A stretch of 64,000 nt of DNA. Source: a virus. Each line of letters begins with the position of its first letter. The stretch's first letter is position 1. A program made the position numbers and the translations under genes. Below the pieces are notes generated by a model. It saw only the letters and a program-made list of their open reading frames with translations. It was not told the DNA's origin and did no database searches. This document shows positions 6,795 through 46,162 of this stretch, piece after piece. The stretch covers positions 97,698 through 161,697 of IMG/VR virus record IMGVR_UViG_3300034110_001237. One strand, 5' to 3'.

Positions 6795-6890
6795 CACTAG
6801 ATAGAGATGACGATGGAATCGCCTCACAGAAAGGTTAGATCATCTTTAGGTTCAGCGGCGATTGGTTGGGTTCGAGTCCCAGATCTAGTG
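6795..6890 (+). ncRNA. tRNA-like RNA with non-canonical anticodon arm
   Basis: CACTAGAT/ATCTAGTG closing stem; T-arm TGGG-TTCGAGT-CCCA; ATCGCC/GGCGAT stem around ~33 nt; promoter upstream, terminator right after; no CCA. Confidence 0.6.
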
Positions 6891-10330: not shown

Positions 10331-10359
10331 TTGCCTTACCGATAAAGTTTTGATAGAAT
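10331..10359 (+). promoter_or_regulatory. sigma70-type promoter for tRNA-Cys
   Basis: TTGCCT-17-TAGAAT with upstream A-tract. Confidence 0.65.
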
Positions 10360-10405
10360 ATCTACATTGAATGAGCAAAGCAATACGCTCTCAATGCCTT
10401 AAAAT

Positions 10406-10479
10406 GGCTGCTTGGCAGAATGGTCATGTACCGGATTGCAAATCCGAGTATGGGGGTTCGATTCCCTCAGCAGCCTCCA
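10406..10479 (+). tRNA. tRNA-Cys(GCA)
   Basis: acceptor GGCTGCT/AGCAGCC, anticodon loop TTGCAAA, T-arm GGGGG-TTCGATT-CCCTC, U73 discriminator, encoded CCA. Confidence 0.95.
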
Positions 10480-15285: not shown

Positions 15286-15440
15286 GATACACTCCTTTAT
15301 TATTTTACAGTTTATTAGTAAAAAAAAATTAATCAAATTTATTCAAAAAACTCCTTGAAAGGTATTGATTGCTTCGTTTCTTTTTGCTAGAATGGCTACA
15401 TTGATGAGATGACAACTCAAAAGTCACTCAGAATTGTAAC

Positions 15441-15543
15441 GCGGATGTGTGAGCGTAATAGGAGAGTTGGCCGTCCGTCCTTGAATAAAGGTTGCTCTAC
15501 TGTTGTATTGGTAACGTAGGTTCAAATCCTACCATCTGCACCA
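15441..15543 (+). ncRNA. tRNA-like RNA with expanded anticodon arm
   Basis: acceptor GCGGATG/CATCTGC + A + CCA; T-arm GTAGG-TTCAAAT-CCTAC; no 7-nt anticodon loop; promoter TTGATT-17-TAGAAT 15365-15393. Confidence 0.7.
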
Positions 15544-15587
15544 AATTTCTTGATTGTTGTGATGGCTTGTGGTATAATCATCACATC

Positions 15588-15756
15588 AAACGAATTAGGA
15601 GCCTTCGTCAAAGAAGGTTGGATAGCAGCGGTGTCGCGGGCAAGCTATCAAGAAAGGTGAGAAATACTCCCTTTCATAGTAACAAAGTCCATCAGGGTGC
15701 TGTTTGCCTTGATTAAAACGCTTAGGTGAAGCGGTTCTTTGTTACGAACTTATTTG
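15588..15756 (+). ncRNA. unknown structured RNA, copy 1
   Basis: own promoter TTGATT-17-TATAAT 15550-15578; multibranch fold co-varying with copy 2. Confidence 0.75.
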
Positions 15757-15760
15757 TCAA

Positions 15761-15825
15761 TTAGCGAAGGAATTATAGTCCTAGTGGCTATGATTAAAAC
15801 GGTTAGGTGGACTGGCCTTCGTTAA
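15761..15825 (+). ncRNA. extra stand-alone copy of the 3-way-junction sub-module
   Basis: TTAGCGAAGG/CCTTCGTTAA outer stem; TGATTAAAAC-GGTT-AGGTG-GACTG-G core. Confidence 0.65.
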
Positions 15826-15880
15826 GACCAATTTTAAAGGTTGTTATTTACAGGTAATTGATGTATAATAACTTCCAGTT

Positions 15881-16053
15881 AAACGAATACGGAGCAGCAG
15901 TTAAATGTTGCTGAATGGTAGCGGTGGTCGGGCGAGCCATTGTGTGAAGGGGAGGTGATTTCTTAGTCCCTCTCTTAGCAACAAGGGAATTAAGATGTTG
16001 TTTGTCTTGATTAACACGGTTGGGTGAACCGGCCCTTGTTGCAAACCTTATTC
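15881..16053 (+). ncRNA. unknown structured RNA, copy 2
   Basis: own promoter TTGTTA-17-TATAAT 15841-15869; terminator 16059-16081; same loops as copy 1 with different stems. Confidence 0.75.
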
Positions 16054-16088
16054 CAAAGAGTTGTCGATGACAGCTTTTTTTGTTTTAT

Positions 16089-16263
16089 GCCCTATAGTCT
16101 AATGGATAATCATTGACAGACTGACAAATTAGTCAGAATCATTCAGGTTAAACTGAATGTGAAGTTGAAAATGGTAACTTTTCGGTTCATGCAAAACCGA
16201 AAAGGAGGACGCCACGTATGTATGTTGGTGGAGATGCAGGTTCGATTCCTGCTTAGGGTACCA
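16089..16263 (+). ncRNA. tRNA-like RNA with ~100-nt multi-hairpin insert in anticodon arm
   Basis: GCCCTA/TAGGGT + A + CCA; D-loop-like GTCTAATGGATA; T-arm GCAGG-TTCGATT-CCTGC; CATTGACA/TGTTGGTG stem enclosing four hairpins. Confidence 0.7.
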
Positions 16264-16286
16264 ATTTAATGAATGTGGAGATTATC

Positions 16287-16499
16287 ATGATTAAGAATAA
16301 CGAATTTGCAAGTGATTATGCTAAACAACTTGTATCTAACATGACTCTTGAACAACGCCAAATGGCATTTAAACACCTTGAAAGTTTTTTTGATGAAGTT
16401 ACAATTGCAACCATGAAATATGATGCACAATACATTGGTGAAGAGCGAGCAGCGATGGACCGTGCCCTTGCTGAGTTGGATGCTAAACCTTCTGTTTAA
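16287..16499 (+). CDS. hypothetical protein
   Basis: GGAG RBS before ATG at 16287. Confidence 0.7.
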   Translation: MIKNNEFASDYAKQLVSNMTLEQRQMAFKHLESFFDEVTIATMKYDAQYIGEERAAMDRALAELDAKPSV

Positions 16500-16515
16500 T
16501 GGGATACCTTTTTAT

Positions 16516-16568
16516 TGGTGAATACTCAATTTATTGAGGTCGTAGGCTAATCCCTTCTTCACCAGCCA
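16516..16568 (+). ncRNA. minimal tRNA-like RNA / tRNA pseudogene lacking the anticodon arm
   Basis: TGGTGAA/TTCACCA + G + CCA; TA-CTCAATT D-arm start; GAGGTC-GTAGG variable/T-arm; degenerate T-loop. Confidence 0.55.
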
Positions 16569-16571
16569 GAT

Positions 16572-16682
16572 TTGCTGTAGGCTCTTGTAGCCTGTCCGAC
16601 CGGGTTGTGACCGGGCAGTACCAGACGGTACCCATTTAGGTGGAGTCAATAAGGCGTAGGTAACTGGTTCCTATTGCAGCAA
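16572..16682 (+). ncRNA. candidate multi-hairpin RNA
   Basis: closing stem TTGCTGTAG/TTGCAGCAA enclosing about six short hairpins. Confidence 0.55.
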
Positions 16683-16712
16683 TGATATTATTAACACTAT
16701 TGAGAGAATATT

Positions 16713-16748
16713 ATGCCGACATATGAAAAAATCTGGACACGATTATAA
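16713..16748 (+). CDS. putative leader uORF MPTYEKIWTRL
   Basis: GAGAG RBS; stops just before the hairpin ACCCT-AGG-AGGGT that hides the next RBS. Confidence 0.4.
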   Translation: MPTYEKIWTRL

Positions 16749-16773
16749 AATGTTAACCCTAGGAGGGTAAATT

Positions 16774-16935
16774 ATGTCCAGAAGTGTAAAAGGCAGTAAA
16801 GGTTGTGGTTATGAATATTGGTCTAAACGTCCTATGTGCTATTCTTCTCCCGGTCGTTGGGCAAAGCAGAAATGCCATAGAATTGAAAGACAACATGATA
16901 AAGAGTTAATCAGAACTGAACTCAAAGATCTTTGA
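16774..16935 (+). CDS. 53-aa basic protein MSRSVKGSKGCGYEYWSKRP... (not in ORF track)
   Basis: AGGAGG RBS; Arg/Lys-rich. Confidence 0.75.
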   Translation: MSRSVKGSKGCGYEYWSKRPMCYSSPGRWAKQKCHRIERQHDKELIRTELKDL

Positions 16936-17086
16936 GTGGTTCTTACAGAGCAAGACCTGCATTAAGTGAAGACTGGCAGCTTGATACGGGAATTATACCG
17001 GCCCAGCGGAATAGTGGAGCGAGAGGTGTAAACCTTGACCTTAGAAGCGATGATTTCCGGTGACTTGGTGGTGGAATTAGAACCAC
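16936..17086 (+). ncRNA. candidate multibranch RNA
   Basis: closing stem GTGGTTCT/AGAACCAC; internal hairpins including GAGGT-GTAA-ACCTT; terminator 17104-17130. Confidence 0.5.
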
Positions 17087-17147
17087 ATAGTACATAGTAC
17101 GGGAAAAGACTTCTTATGAAGTCTTTTTTTTATTCTTTTTTAAGCTG

Positions 17148-34903: not shown

Positions 34904-36406
34904 ATGTCTAAAATAACAACAGAAGATTGTAAATCATTCCTTTTGGATCTATATAACGATAAAAAAGTGACTGATTGGAAGCGAATTCGTAAATTTAAAG
35001 ACGAAAATGGCGACTCATGCCGAGATTTTTCTCATTCTGATGGAACTTCTCTTACTTTGATTGAAAAAAATGGTCAATTATCCGTTCTGCCATTAGCAGT
35101 ATTAACCAATTTTATTGAAAATGACAAACCGCCAGTAGCATCCACAAAAAATGTAAAATCAAAAGGTATTTCAATTTTGCCATTGATTCTTGAAGATAAC
35201 AATGAATTGATAAAAAAAGCTCAATTTACAGTATTTTATGAAACACAACTGAAATCAGCCAAACGATTGGTGAATGCGTTCGCCAAACCAAAAGAAGACC
35301 CAATCACACCCAATTCCGATGCCAAAGGTTTTGATGCCATTCCCAACCTTATTTATTTCTCATTTCTTGAAGACGCGAACTGCGATGAAATCGAATATTT
35401 AGAAACGATTGCTAAGGACATGAACTTCAATGCTTTAATGAATGACATTGTTGTTTTCTTTATCCCATCGACTGTTTCATCCATGTGTGATCACCTTTCT
35501 CCATTGATTGAACCACTGTTGCCAGTCCCACTGCAGGAAGTTGAAGAAATGTCGTTCAAGTTGAATGACAGCACCTTGACTGTTACTGATGTATTTGAAC
35601 AACTCACCAAGGCTGGCTTTGTCTATAATCCAGATGGTTGTGCTTTGAAGTCTCTGTTTACTCAATACCAGTTGATTGCCATTGATCCTGTTATCAATCC
35701 AAATGACAAAACGGCTGAATATAAAAAGGCTTTCTTGTCTGCATTGAAAAAAGATGATGCAATCAAAATGAAAGCATTGATTGATTCTGGTTTGCCGTTG
35801 ACGTTTAAGATCAGTGGACAGTCGCTATTAGGCAAAACGATGTATGAGTGTAAATTCGAGTGCTTTAAATATTTGTCGTCCCTTTACACCAACACTGCTA
35901 ACATAGGTAATGGTATTGCTGATGAAGTGTGGGAACATGTTTGGTGGAAAACTGACTGTTCATCTTATTTTATGGCTAATTGTCATTATGACTTCACACA
36001 TTCCAACAAAAATGCTCATCGTCATTTAGTGAGTACGCTGGTGCATCATACCACTTATTTCGATAAGGTTAAACATAATGTGAACCCTGAGTTCTTTGCA
36101 GTTTCCTGTCTTGAATGCACCTTAACACATGATAGGGCTTATGAGTTGTTTAAAGAGTTTGTAAAAAAAGCCATTGATGAATATCCAGAAGCGGTTTCTT
36201 CAAACAAGCAACTGGCTGAAGATCTTGTTCATGGCTTTATCATTCCACCTGTTTTAGAGCTTTTGGCTGGAAGTTCTTGCACTTTTAAGGGAAAGACTGT
36301 ATTTGAAGTTGTGCAGGCTAAAATTGATGAAATAGGCCATGATCCAAAAGGATATATCAACAAGATTAATTATTACAAAGCTTTTTTGAGAAAGCATGCT
36401 CGATAA
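34904..36406 (+). CDS. hypothetical protein, possible ankyrin-like repeat in C-terminal half
   Basis: GGAG RBS; ALKKDDAIKMKALIDSG...GQSLL. Confidence 0.7.
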   Translation: MSKITTEDCKSFLLDLYNDKKVTDWKRIRKFKDENGDSCRDFSHSDGTSLTLIEKNGQLSVLPLAVLTNFIENDKPPVASTKNVKSKGISILPLILEDNNELIKKAQFTVFYETQLKSAKRLVNAFAKPKEDPITPNSDAKGFDAIPNLIYFSFLEDANCDEIEYLETIAKDMNFNALMNDIVVFFIPSTVSSMCDHLSPLIEPLLPVPLQEVEEMSFKLNDSTLTVTDVFEQLTKAGFVYNPDGCALKSLFTQYQLIAIDPVINPNDKTAEYKKAFLSALKKDDAIKMKALIDSGLPLTFKISGQSLLGKTMYECKFECFKYLSSLYTNTANIGNGIADEVWEHVWWKTDCSSYFMANCHYDFTHSNKNAHRHLVSTLVHHTTYFDKVKHNVNPEFFAVSCLECTLTHDRAYELFKEFVKKAIDEYPEAVSSNKQLAEDLVHGFIIPPVLELLAGSSCTFKGKTVFEVVQAKIDEIGHDPKGYINKINYYKAFLRKHAR

Positions 36407-40184: not shown

Positions 40185-40655
40185 ATGTATGTTTACGATA
40201 AATTTGAAAAAGCAAAACCTGCTATATTTGATAGGGTTGGTAGATCCTTTGACATGAACCTTGACGATCTTGTTCCAACTGTTAGACCTGTTGCTATTAA
40301 AAAAGATCCCAACCTGCCAAGAATGGAATGGACTTACGAGTTAACCTTTAAATACGTACTTAATTTTGAAGTTAAATTAGATGTCGCACCTAATGCAAAA
40401 TTGATTATCAACCTTGATGATGAATTTAACGCTTCTGGTGCTCTTGTTTTCTTTTCGACTATTAATGGTGTGTCAGAAGATTTTAAATCAACCAAGATTT
40501 ATTTTGGTTATGACGAGCCATCGTGTCGTATTGAAATTCGATATAAAGAGAATAAAGAATCGAAAATTGTTAATATTAGTCAACTAGTTAATGGAACAGT
40601 TATTGAAGCTATCAGTAAAGCTAATCATTTTTTTGAGGAATCTTTAATTTCTTAA
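40185..40655 (+). CDS. hypothetical protein (possible ATT start at 40122)
   Basis: frame open back to 40110; GAGGT RBS precedes ATT at 40122. Confidence 0.7.
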   Translation: MYVYDKFEKAKPAIFDRVGRSFDMNLDDLVPTVRPVAIKKDPNLPRMEWTYELTFKYVLNFEVKLDVAPNAKLIINLDDEFNASGALVFFSTINGVSEDFKSTKIYFGYDEPSCRIEIRYKENKESKIVNISQLVNGTVIEAISKANHFFEESLIS

Positions 40656-45166: not shown

Positions 45167-46162
45167 ATGTCAAAAATCTTGACCGGCGATAGACCAACAG
45201 GTTCACTTCATCTGGGGCATTTTGTAGGTTCCTTACACAACCGTGTGAAACTTCAGCACTTGCACCAGCAAACTATTTTGATTGCTGATAATCAGGCGTT
45301 AACTGACAATATGGGAAATCCTACGAAAGTCCGTGATAACGTCATTGAAGTTGCTAAAGACTATCTGGCTTGTGGGATTGATCCTAGTAAGACCACTATT
45401 TGTGTTCAATCACACCTTCCGGCTATTGCCGAATTGACATTGCTGTATCTTAACCTTGTAACTGTCTCCCGTTTAGAACGGAATCCTACCATTCGTGATG
45501 AGATTAAAGCCAAGAACTTTGAGCGAAGTATTCCAGCCGGTTTCTTAGCTTATCCAGTAGCACAAGCCGCAGACATTACTGCATTCAAGGCCGATCTTGT
45601 TCCAGTCGGTGAAGACCAGCTTCCATTGATTGAGCAAGCGAATGAAATCGTCCACAAATTAAACACTCAGCTAGGCTTCGAAATTGTTCCATCCATAAAA
45701 GCTCTTACTTCAACAGTGGCACGACTACCAAGCCTTGATGGTAAGTCTAAAATGAGCAAATCGCTTGGTAATACTATCAATCTATACGCAAGCATGAAAG
45801 ACATTCAAAAGGCCGTCAATTTGATGTTTACTGACAGTAATCATCTTCGCGTTGAAGATCCCGGTAAAGTAGAAGGCAACGTGGTGTTTACTTACCTTGA
45901 TGCGTTTGATCCCGATGTGAATGAGGTGGCTAACCTGAAAGAGTTTTATCAGCGTGGTGGTTTAGGTGATGGCACTTTAAAAAAACGTCTGGTTGGTGTT
46001 TTAGAAACGGTTATTGCTCCTATCCGAGAACAAAGACTAATACTCAATACTCAGCATGATTTTGTACTTGATGTGTTGAAGCAAGGTACGTTTCAAGCAA
46101 AAGCTGAAACTGATCAAAACGTCAATGAGATTAAAGATGCTTTTGGTTTTTTTAAATTTTAA
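45167..46162 (+). CDS. trpS: tryptophanyl-tRNA synthetase
   Basis: ILTGDRPTGSLHLGH (HIGH), YPVAQAADI, VPVGEDQ, KMSKS. Confidence 0.97.
   Translation: MSKILTGDRPTGSLHLGHFVGSLHNRVKLQHLHQQTILIADNQALTDNMGNPTKVRDNVIEVAKDYLACGIDPSKTTICVQSHLPAIAELTLLYLNLVTVSRLERNPTIRDEIKAKNFERSIPAGFLAYPVAQAADITAFKADLVPVGEDQLPLIEQANEIVHKLNTQLGFEIVPSIKALTSTVARLPSLDGKSKMSKSLGNTINLYASMKDIQKAVNLMFTDSNHLRVEDPGKVEGNVVFTYLDAFDPDVNEVANLKEFYQRGGLGDGTLKKRLVGVLETVIAPIREQRLILNTQHDFVLDVLKQGTFQAKAETDQNVNEIKDAFGFFKF

Follow-up and report, generated by a model that had tools for sequence, protein, structure and literature searches.

Why should a giant phage-like element devote some 1.8 kb of one strand to two small proteins and a row of structured RNAs, several of which resemble transfer RNAs (tRNAs) that have lost the means to decode? 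The question is raised by an island at positions 15365-17130 of a stretch of 64,000 nucleotides (nt), hereafter the window, which corresponds to bases 97698-161697 of the IMG/VR record IMGVR_UViG_3300034110_001237, a 161.7-kb sequence classed as a provirus and estimated to be approximately 50% complete. The island is a block of plus-strand features flanked by two minus-strand genes, and contains three sigma-70-like promoters, two terminators, two small open reading frames (ORFs), an 11-codon mini-ORF and seven RNA genes (Table 1). A first-pass annotation of the same DNA had described at least eight structured elements alongside only two small proteins; both proteins (ORF76 and ORF53) are real and the mini-ORF has to be added to them, whereas the structured elements number seven RNA genes or ten modules according to the way of counting (E1, the head of RNA B and its two junction modules, the head of RNA C and its single one, E4, E5, E6 and E7). 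We read the island as a rebuilt tRNA gene cluster in which E1, E4 and E5 serve as handles for RNA processing and stability and E1 acts in addition as a specific mimic, a reading to which we give a probability of about one half. Phage tRNA clusters are commonly taken for codon supplements or for spares against host nucleases; here, most of the cluster appears to have been turned into non-decoding RNAs under selection.

The likeness of these RNAs to tRNAs lies in one half of the molecule. ARAGORN, run with or without introns, calls none of E1, E4 and E5, and the same holds for Rfam at its gathering score. With a permissive E-value, the Rfam tRNA model RF00005 matches E1 at 19.3 bits and E4 at 18.3 bits, both below the 29-bit cut-off, and leaves E5 unmatched; these matches cover the T arm and acceptor of E1 and E4, and nothing else of note. 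The pseudogene or undetermined tRNA calls that had been expected are thus absent from ARAGORN and limited in Rfam to two RNAs below threshold. A strict scan of both strands of the record, which required a T stem of 5 base pairs (bp) with the loop TTCRANY, six or more of the seven acceptor pairs and an NCCA end, returned six modules in 161.7 kb, all on the plus strand, as compared to an average of 0.05 in 40 shuffles: tRNA-Arg, tRNA-Leu, tRNA-Cys, a 69-nt RNA, E1 and E4. The 7-bp acceptor (7/7 pairs in E1, 6/7 in E4), the 5-bp T stem with its 7-nt loop and the NCCA end are all found in these last two, and an encoded CCA is also present in the three canonical tRNAs of the record. Direct reading and the strict scan therefore bear out that E1 and E4 combine a tRNA acceptor, a T arm and an encoded CCA with an altered anticodon arm. 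For E5 the claim holds in part, since its acceptor and CCA conform to tRNA, but its T arm is approximate, with a 6-nt loop, and the arm said to be deleted is represented by one that is kept. The proposed fourth element at 6795, outside the island, stands as an acceptor-like helix with a T arm and not as a CCA-ended RNA.

None of E1, E4 and E5 has a 5-bp stem with a 7-nt anticodon loop, the available loops being of 6 and 5 nt in E1, 6 nt in E4 and 4 nt in E5 (GNRA in relatives), so these RNAs cannot decode. Features recognized by RNase P and RNase Z are present in all three, namely the acceptor/T stack, a U or C at position -1 and an encoded RCCA tail.

E1 is the most elaborate of them. Its 7-bp acceptor comprises six Watson-Crick pairs and G3·U70 and is followed by the discriminator A73 and CCA, and its T arm is canonical (5-bp stem, 7-nt TTCAAAT loop). 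Between them, a 5-bp clamp helix encloses a 4-bp D-like hairpin with an 8-nt GG loop and a 4-bp hairpin with a 5-nt loop; a further arm of 5 bp with a 6-nt UUGUAU loop comes next, separated from the T arm by two linker bases. In the alignment of four genomes, 98.5% of the cells at the 35 pairs are standard pairs, the eight one-sided stem changes all keep pairing through G·U, and the junctions and the D-like loop are all invariant.

This constraint extends to most of the island. Four relatives were compared (the L006/L014, L013, L015 and L016 loci), giving four distinct sequences per element, and E1, E5, E6, E7, B and C are conserved in all of them. Identity figures refer to the L006/L014 relative (Table 1). 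The divergence of E1, E6 and E7 is about fivefold lower than that of the third codon positions of ORF76; with identities of 88-92%, the RNA genes thus evolve approximately five times more slowly than near-neutral sites. ORF76 itself probably starts at 16287, an earlier ATG at 16269 not being conserved, and shows 18, 15 and 31 changes at codon positions 1, 2 and 3, respectively, with 31 of its 71 third positions altered (about 56% identical). In E6, the five genomes agree in every base over a stretch of 50 nt and none of the 37 pairs is broken by substitution, one of them being seen as three types; in E7, four of the 40 pairs show two-sided changes and none is broken. Conservation of E1, E5, E6, E7, B and C equals or exceeds that of the proteins, and changes in their stems preserve pairing; these RNAs are therefore not decaying pseudogenes. 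The earlier argument against random decay is upheld by the identity of E1, E6, E7, B and C, by the pairing of E1 and by the two-sided acceptor changes of E5.

E5 is a miniature: behind the 7-bp acceptor come two linker bases and an arm, then, after three more bases, a 5-bp hairpin whose loop has 6 nt, and finally the 3' strand of the acceptor and GCCA. The T-like loop is non-canonical and, in the window, the T-like stem contains a U·U mismatch. The arm is 22 nt longer in the relatives (range 14-36 nt), where it ends in a GNRA loop, and the folds of the relatives have z-scores of -3.0 and -2.2. Lineages differ at both bases of two acceptor pairs and at a single base of a third. The shape of E5 is thus kept while sequence and arm length drift, a pattern expected of a pure structural signal. 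As to position, E4 ends 22 nt before the conserved start of ORF76, the stop codon of ORF76 lies 16 nt before E5, and E6 begins at the base right after the CCA of E5, which is thus placed exactly between the ORF76 stop codon and E6.

E4 begins at its 5' end with a 6/7-pair acceptor and a D-like hairpin containing GG; then come a 5-bp stem closed by a loop of 6 nt and three more hairpins, of which one has 10 bp, before the canonical T arm and ACCA. Some 100 nt of hairpins thereby separate the T arm from the tRNA-like portion at the 5' end. The fold of the 176 nt has a z-score of -4.6, equalled by 0 of 200 shuffles. The T arm is identical base for base to that of a tRNA-Arg in a 290-kb phage (G009, IMGVR_UViG_3300024308_000302, 96% complete), and E4 therefore probably derives from a tRNA. 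All four relatives lack E4, and the gap is a clean indel that falls after the terminator of C and before the ribosome-binding site of ORF76; exact patterns of its 3' end were found neither in viral contigs nor in GTDB genomes, and homologues were recovered neither by nhmmer against the fetched loci and the whole 290-kb phage nor by motif greps. Within E4, the segment 16200-16264 carries a strong Shine-Dalgarno-like run and two ATGs opening frames of 12 and 15 codons into the T arm, probably a coincidence of the fold.

A tRNA ancestry is also visible in E1. Its -10 hexamer and the first 14 bases of its leader are common to the unit of tRNA-Cys (10349-10405), which makes E1 a copy of a tRNA transcription unit whose body has been rebuilt. 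When the record and other sequences were searched with the E1 covariance model R2, the best match from outside the family was the element's own tRNA-Leu(UAG), at 29 bits, and outside the clade only ordinary tRNAs were found, at 16-29 bits; the 5' strand of the tRNA-Leu acceptor differs from that of E1 at one of seven positions. Judging by these similarities, E1 looks like a paralogue of tRNA-Leu. Two other descriptions of E1 were tried and rejected: as an intron-bearing tRNA or one with a long variable arm, ARAGORN with introns and lowered thresholds gave spurious registers only, and as a mini-form of transfer-messenger RNA (tmRNA) it has no conserved tag frame, the only short frame losing its stop codon in L015.

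G3·U70 together with A73 forms the identity set of alanyl-tRNA synthetase (AlaRS), which is independent of the anticodon. In E1, G3·U70 and A73 are invariant in four genomes, with an ACCA tail. A G·U pair at 3:70 and an ACCA tail are likewise found in the 69-nt RNA of the record, outside the island; the three canonical tRNAs, E4 and E5 do not have this combination.

RNAs B and C are two paralogues. Their consensus structure contains 47 pairs, 18 of which exhibit compensatory changes. The core of the head consists of two hairpins with conserved loops and recurs three times in the 290-kb phage, where the head units stand between a promoter and real tRNAs, one of them with an 8-nt anticodon loop; every unit starts from a promoter of its own, and two were followed in the sequence as far as a terminator of their own. 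When both lineages are taken together, 10 of the 13 pairs of the head core change on both sides, a score reached by 0 of 500 shuffles. In the window, the slot behind the head holds no tRNA but a three-way-junction module, present in three copies of about 50-70 nt, in which the junction strand hardly varies and the hairpin loop has 5 nt. This module is also found at two places of the 290-kb phage (loci L060 and L061), near tRNA or tRNA-like genes; a further match of the junction pattern, in a GC-rich coding region, was judged to be due to chance. The same leader before real tRNAs in one phage and before junction modules in another shows that the parts can be interchanged. Rfam returned no match for B, C, E6 or E7, even with a permissive E-value, and likenesses of B and C to 5S ribosomal RNA loop E, T-box, boxA and CRISPR repeats, noticed by eye, were set aside in view of covarying helices or of the lack of an Rfam match. 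The hairpin of the junction module contains GGUGAA, the bases of the acceptor 5' strand of E5 and of the tRNA-like gene E1b described below. The 290-kb phage encodes 35 tRNAs, among which are otherwise canonical ones with a 6-nt or an 8-nt loop (the latter with a four-base anticodon) and two CUA suppressors. On its L060 locus lies a tRNA-Leu-like gene ending in CCA, whose anticodon loop is enlarged by about 24 bases and which ARAGORN calls only with introns and a lowered threshold.

The surroundings of ORF53 homologues differ between phages. Homologues of this small basic protein (phrog_7399) occur in many jumbo phages; in six distant metagenomic phages the homologue is located inside a true tRNA cluster, on the same strand, whereas in the cultured phages D6 and PhiPA3 it is not. 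ORF53 shows 3, 2 and 13 changes by codon position. The likely promoter and ribosome-binding site of ORF53 come shortly after the mini-ORF, in which three of the four changes fall at third positions, all being synonymous or conservative (Lys/Arg), a substitution pattern that suggests a translated leader peptide. Translation with TAG read as Q, or with table 4, gave no long ORF in the island, and an alternative genetic code was consequently dropped as the reason for the small number of ORFs.

Anatomy, conservation, structure-preserving changes and homology to tRNA transcription units are thus the grounds on which we infer expression, processing, charging and any target of the island RNAs. On our reading, E1, E4 and E5 derive from tRNAs and keep, for the maturation enzymes that read it, an acceptor helix stacked on a T or T-like arm; the GG-bearing D-like loops of E1 and E4 imply that a tRNA elbow can form in these two. 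Host RNase P and 3' trimming would excise the three RNAs from longer transcripts in the same way as the element's own tRNAs. Excision would set the ends of the neighbours, i.e., of the ORF76 mRNA after E4 and before E5 and of E6 after E5, and would also leave stable CCA-ended carriers of the inserted domains, comparable to RNAC of phage T4. E5, constrained in shape only, would fit a pure punctuation signal. E1, constrained in sequence and bearing the alanine set, would probably also imitate a tRNA towards a protein that binds tRNAs, perhaps by being charged by AlaRS; we read it as a specific mimic because it has a promoter to itself, loops that do not vary, a retained elbow and the alanine identity marks. 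The idea that tRNA shells may serve as scaffolds for cargo RNA, put forward in the first-pass annotation, is consistent with the 100 nt of hairpins in E4 and the location of E5 between the ORF76 stop and E6.

Several observations weigh against this reading. No pair of E1 is changed on both sides and its structure was drawn from the same sequences, so that its support consists of conservation and structure-preserving change and not of formal covariation. The G3·U70 of E1 could be a chance G·U pair, and its position 2:71 is C-G (U·G in one relative) where tRNA-Ala has G-C. E4 is a singleton, and the evidence for selection, drawn from aligned relatives, would accordingly not extend to it. Pure punctuation does not explain the own promoter and the invariant loops and junctions of E1. 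Finally, genes for Ro60 (TROVE), a CCA-adding enzyme, RtcB and SmpB were not found in the 161.7 kb, which represent about half of the element.

E1b is a 74-nt RNA with its own promoter located between E1 and B in three of the relatives and missing from the window and from L013. It is a perfect cloverleaf except for a 6-nt anticodon loop, is 100% identical in three genomes that differ elsewhere, and folds with a z-score of -3.3. Where E1b is present, a loop of 25 nt closes the fourth arm of E1; that arm has the UUGUAU loop in the window and L013, and UUGUA is common to the E1b loop and to this E1 loop. Each genome thereby possesses exactly one 5-bp stem with a 6-nt UUGUA loop, in E1b where present and otherwise in E1. 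Moreover, the acceptor of E5 in the window and L013 is that of E1b at positions 2-7, with the same G discriminator. The shared loop and acceptor may reflect recombination between paralogues or a need to retain these modules. It had been proposed that normal tRNAs in the relatives would speak against altered tRNAs as a set, and the comparison is mixed in this respect: altered E1 and E5 are kept, E4 is replaced by nothing and not by a normal tRNA, and three relatives carry the near-normal E1b.

These facts bear on a second explanation, conceivable though in our opinion rather doubtful, in which the RNAs are decoys or sponges for tRNA-targeting defence or toxin enzymes, the CCA-ended top halves titrating enzymes of the acceptor end or elbow and the 6-nt UUGUA loops of E1 and E1b imitating part of a tRNA-Tyr-type anticodon loop. 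Defences that cleave tRNAs are known to be countered by tRNAs of phages (PMC10264068, PMC11464382) and a precedent exists, as PtuAB of Retron-Eco7 degrades tRNA-Tyr and phage T5 counters with its own tRNA-Tyr (PMC11555353). The own promoter and sequence-invariant loops of E1 would suit such decoys, as would the single UUGUA stem per genome and the E1b acceptor appearing in E5 where E1b is absent. However, the loop and acceptor could be shared through paralogue recombination, the shape-only constraint on E5 better suits a processing signal, and neither a defence system nor a host is known for the element. Phage tRNAs that resist nucleases or replace cut tRNAs resemble the island RNAs by their altered anticodon loops in a conflict with the host (PMC10264068, PMC11464382, PMC11555353), but they are working decoders with 7-nt loops, which E1, E4 and E5 cannot be. 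What anticodon nucleases recognize is the anticodon loop, in many cases together with its modifications; such a loop is lacking in E4 and E5, and one of 6 nt is unable to adopt the normal shape. The decoys against anticodon nucleases initially proposed thus find no support and are unlikely, the loop read by such enzymes being missing or altered in E1, E4 and E5, while decoys for acceptor-end enzymes are possible. Interference with stringent sensing, suggested at the same time, would require codon-anticodon pairing, which these three RNAs cannot offer.

A bolder version, which we regard as improbable, would have the element run a modular set of non-decoding tRNA mimics directed against specific host factors, with E1 and the 69-nt RNA as anticodon-independent alanine acceptors and a fixed repertoire of modules moved between shells. 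The modules would be the 6-nt UUGUA loop and the GGUGAA/UUCACC acceptor with G73, relocated whenever their shell is lost. If so, the loop and the acceptor would each have their own partner, for instance a tRNA-Tyr-directed nuclease or an acceptor-end enzyme.

Unusual but working decoders, with 6- or 8-nt loops or expanded bodies used for recoding or frameshifting of the element's genes, seem very unlikely. E1b, a cloverleaf kept without change in three genomes, the 6-nt-loop, 8-nt-loop and CUA suppressor tRNAs of the 290-kb relative, and the TrpRS and ribosome recycling factor encoded by the element would agree with such a role. Nevertheless, the sole arm of E5 ends in a loop of 4 nt or of the GNRA type, the arm of E1 that could hold an anticodon passes from a 6-nt to a 25-nt loop in three relatives, E4 contains its large insertion, none of the three scores as a tRNA, and no recoding signal was seen in the island with TAG as Q or table 4. 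No more credible is the view that the RNAs are functionless, decaying remnants of a former tRNA cluster, which could draw on the normal tRNAs around the ORF53 homologue in distant phages, on the uniqueness of E4 and on the mismatched T-like stem and shortened arm of the window E5, but which the slow divergence of E1, E6 and E7, the stem changes that keep pairing (two of them two-sided in the E5 acceptor), the conserved promoters and the unchanged E1b render unlikely for E1, E5, E6 and E7, decay being still possible for E4.

Among known systems, the closest in layout are RNAC and RNAD (species 1 and 2) of phage T4, which are likewise stable non-tRNA RNAs in a phage tRNA cluster, on the same strand and near small ORFs. 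In RNAC (139 nt), a canonical T arm close to the 3' end is combined with a large body of several hairpins, the design of E4, and the fold has a z-score of -4.6. Unlike E4, RNAC as annotated has no regular 7-bp acceptor and no encoded CCA, and, unlike the T4 pair, the island holds several distinct RNA families, each conserved. The likeness is one of layout only, the search of a phage collection having given no sequence similarity. The roles of RNAC and RNAD are still unknown after decades (PMC3014915, PMC9697503). The island could help to address them, as well as the choice between tRNA shells as processing or stability devices and as mimics for host proteins; it offers as entry points the shape-only miniature E5, the four-arm E1 with its alanine marks, the cargo shell E4 and the B/C, E6 and E7 families.

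The punctuation part of our reading has its counterpart in the t-elements of plant mitochondria, tRNA-like structures at the 5' or 3' ends of mRNAs that most likely tell RNase P and RNase Z where to cut (PMC1920247). The ORF76 mRNA is bordered by E4 and E5 in a similar way. As differences, t-elements are organellar, the processing of the island RNAs is a prediction, and E1 has its own promoter and a sequence constraint that a pure signal would not need. The tRNA-like domain of tmRNA, tag-less phage forms included, resembles E1 in combining acceptor, T arm and CCA without an anticodon. Alanine identity of tmRNA rests on G3·U70 and A73, and E1 is the only one of E1, E4 and E5 to display both. 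Unlike tmRNA, E1 has no conserved tag frame and possesses a D-like hairpin and two further arms; an ARAGORN tmRNA search (-m, relaxed threshold) returned nothing, and SmpB, the partner of tmRNA, has no gene in the half-complete record and would be supplied by the host. Finally, Y RNAs of the YrlA type, bacterial or phage-borne, are also non-coding RNAs with a tRNA-like domain. YrlA of Mycobacterium smegmatis is reported to be cleavable by RNase P, to be able to receive CCA and to be a substrate of several tRNA-recognizing enzymes (PMC4201824). The island differs from them by the lack of a Ro60 (TROVE) gene and of a Ro-binding stem formed by the 5' and 3' ends, and Rfam gave no Y-RNA match with E-values up to 10.

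Table 1. Features of the island and related loci. Positions are those of the window unless a locus or genome is named; identity is that between the window and the L006/L014 relative.
Feature	Positions	Strand	Basis or remark	Identity
Promoter P1 of E1	15365-15393	+	promoter scan; -35 and -10 spaced by 17 nt; hexamers conserved in relatives	
E1 leader, 40 nt	15400-15440	+	start matches tRNA-Cys leader	78%
E1, tRNA-derived RNA of 103 nt	15441-15543	+	direct reading, strict scan, alignment	92%
Promoter P2 of RNA B	15550-15578	+	10/12 hexamer matches, TG before -10; 93-95% conserved	
RNA B	15585-15840	+	three-hairpin head 15586-15685; junction modules ~15686-15755 and 15768-15845	91%
Promoter P3 of RNA C	15841-15869	+	promoter scan	
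RNA C, paralogue of B	15876-16079	+	head and one junction module (15980-16052); intrinsic terminator 16055-16079	89%
Head core of B and of C	15586-15650, 15879-15942		two hairpins	
E4, tRNA-like RNA of 176 nt	16089-16264	+	direct reading; fold z-score -4.6	
ORF76	16287-16499	+	frame kept in all relatives; no family match	70%
E5, miniature tRNA-like RNA	16516-16568	+	folds of relatives; two-sided acceptor pair changes	74%
E6, multi-hairpin RNA	16569-16688	+	8-bp closing helix; 37 pairs	90%
Mini-ORF, 11 codons	16713-16748	+	substitution pattern between genomes	
ORF53, small basic protein	16774-16935	+	phrog_7399	89%
E7, structured RNA	16946-17090	+	40 pairs; downstream of ORF53	88%
Strong terminator closing the island	17101-17130	+	common to convergent methyltransferase gene	
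tRNA-like element outside the island	6795-6890	+	8-bp acceptor-like helix, canonical T arm, no CCA; own promoter and terminator	
tRNA-Cys	10406-10479		ARAGORN and Rfam at gathering score; sole call in the window	
TrpRS	45167-46162		full-length; TIGR00233, 232 bits	
E1b, in three relatives	L014 3738-3811; L015 3852-3925; L016 3852-3925		cloverleaf with 6-nt anticodon loop	
Head core in the 290-kb phage	G009 163158-163223, 183639-183704, 40233-40296		recurrence of the B/C head core	
Junction module in the 290-kb phage	L060 6280-6339; L061 2867-2915		near tRNA or tRNA-like genes	
tRNA-Leu-like gene in the 290-kb phage	L060 5880-5975	-	CCA-ended	
Unusual tRNAs of the 290-kb phage (6-nt loop, 8-nt loop, two CUA)	G009 35401-35477, 163041-163117, 179840-179914, 180849-180923			

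Searches beyond these loci returned little. With the whole island as query, the DNA search of a phage collection gave zero matches, and the invariant core of E6, used as an anchor, recovered only a known relative and nothing in GTDB genomes. Homologues of E5, E6 and E7 are absent from the 290-kb phage, the one relative searched whole for them; elsewhere, the search covered the 10-kb loci around ORF53 homologues. The relative recovered through E6, which is the closest of the island (L076, Ga0308158_10000001), sits within a contig from a metagenome that is 1,859,102 bases long. What is classed as a provirus may thus be part of a much larger replicon or chromosome, and since a close relative was cut from this 1.86-Mb contig, giant phage-like element is the safe name for it. 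The GC content of the element is about 35% and most of its proteins have no family match. The tryptophan-tRNA ligase TrpRS is encoded, a tRNA-Trp was not found in the 161.7-kb record, and a 607-amino-acid ORF of the record resembles virion structural proteins of jumbo phages.

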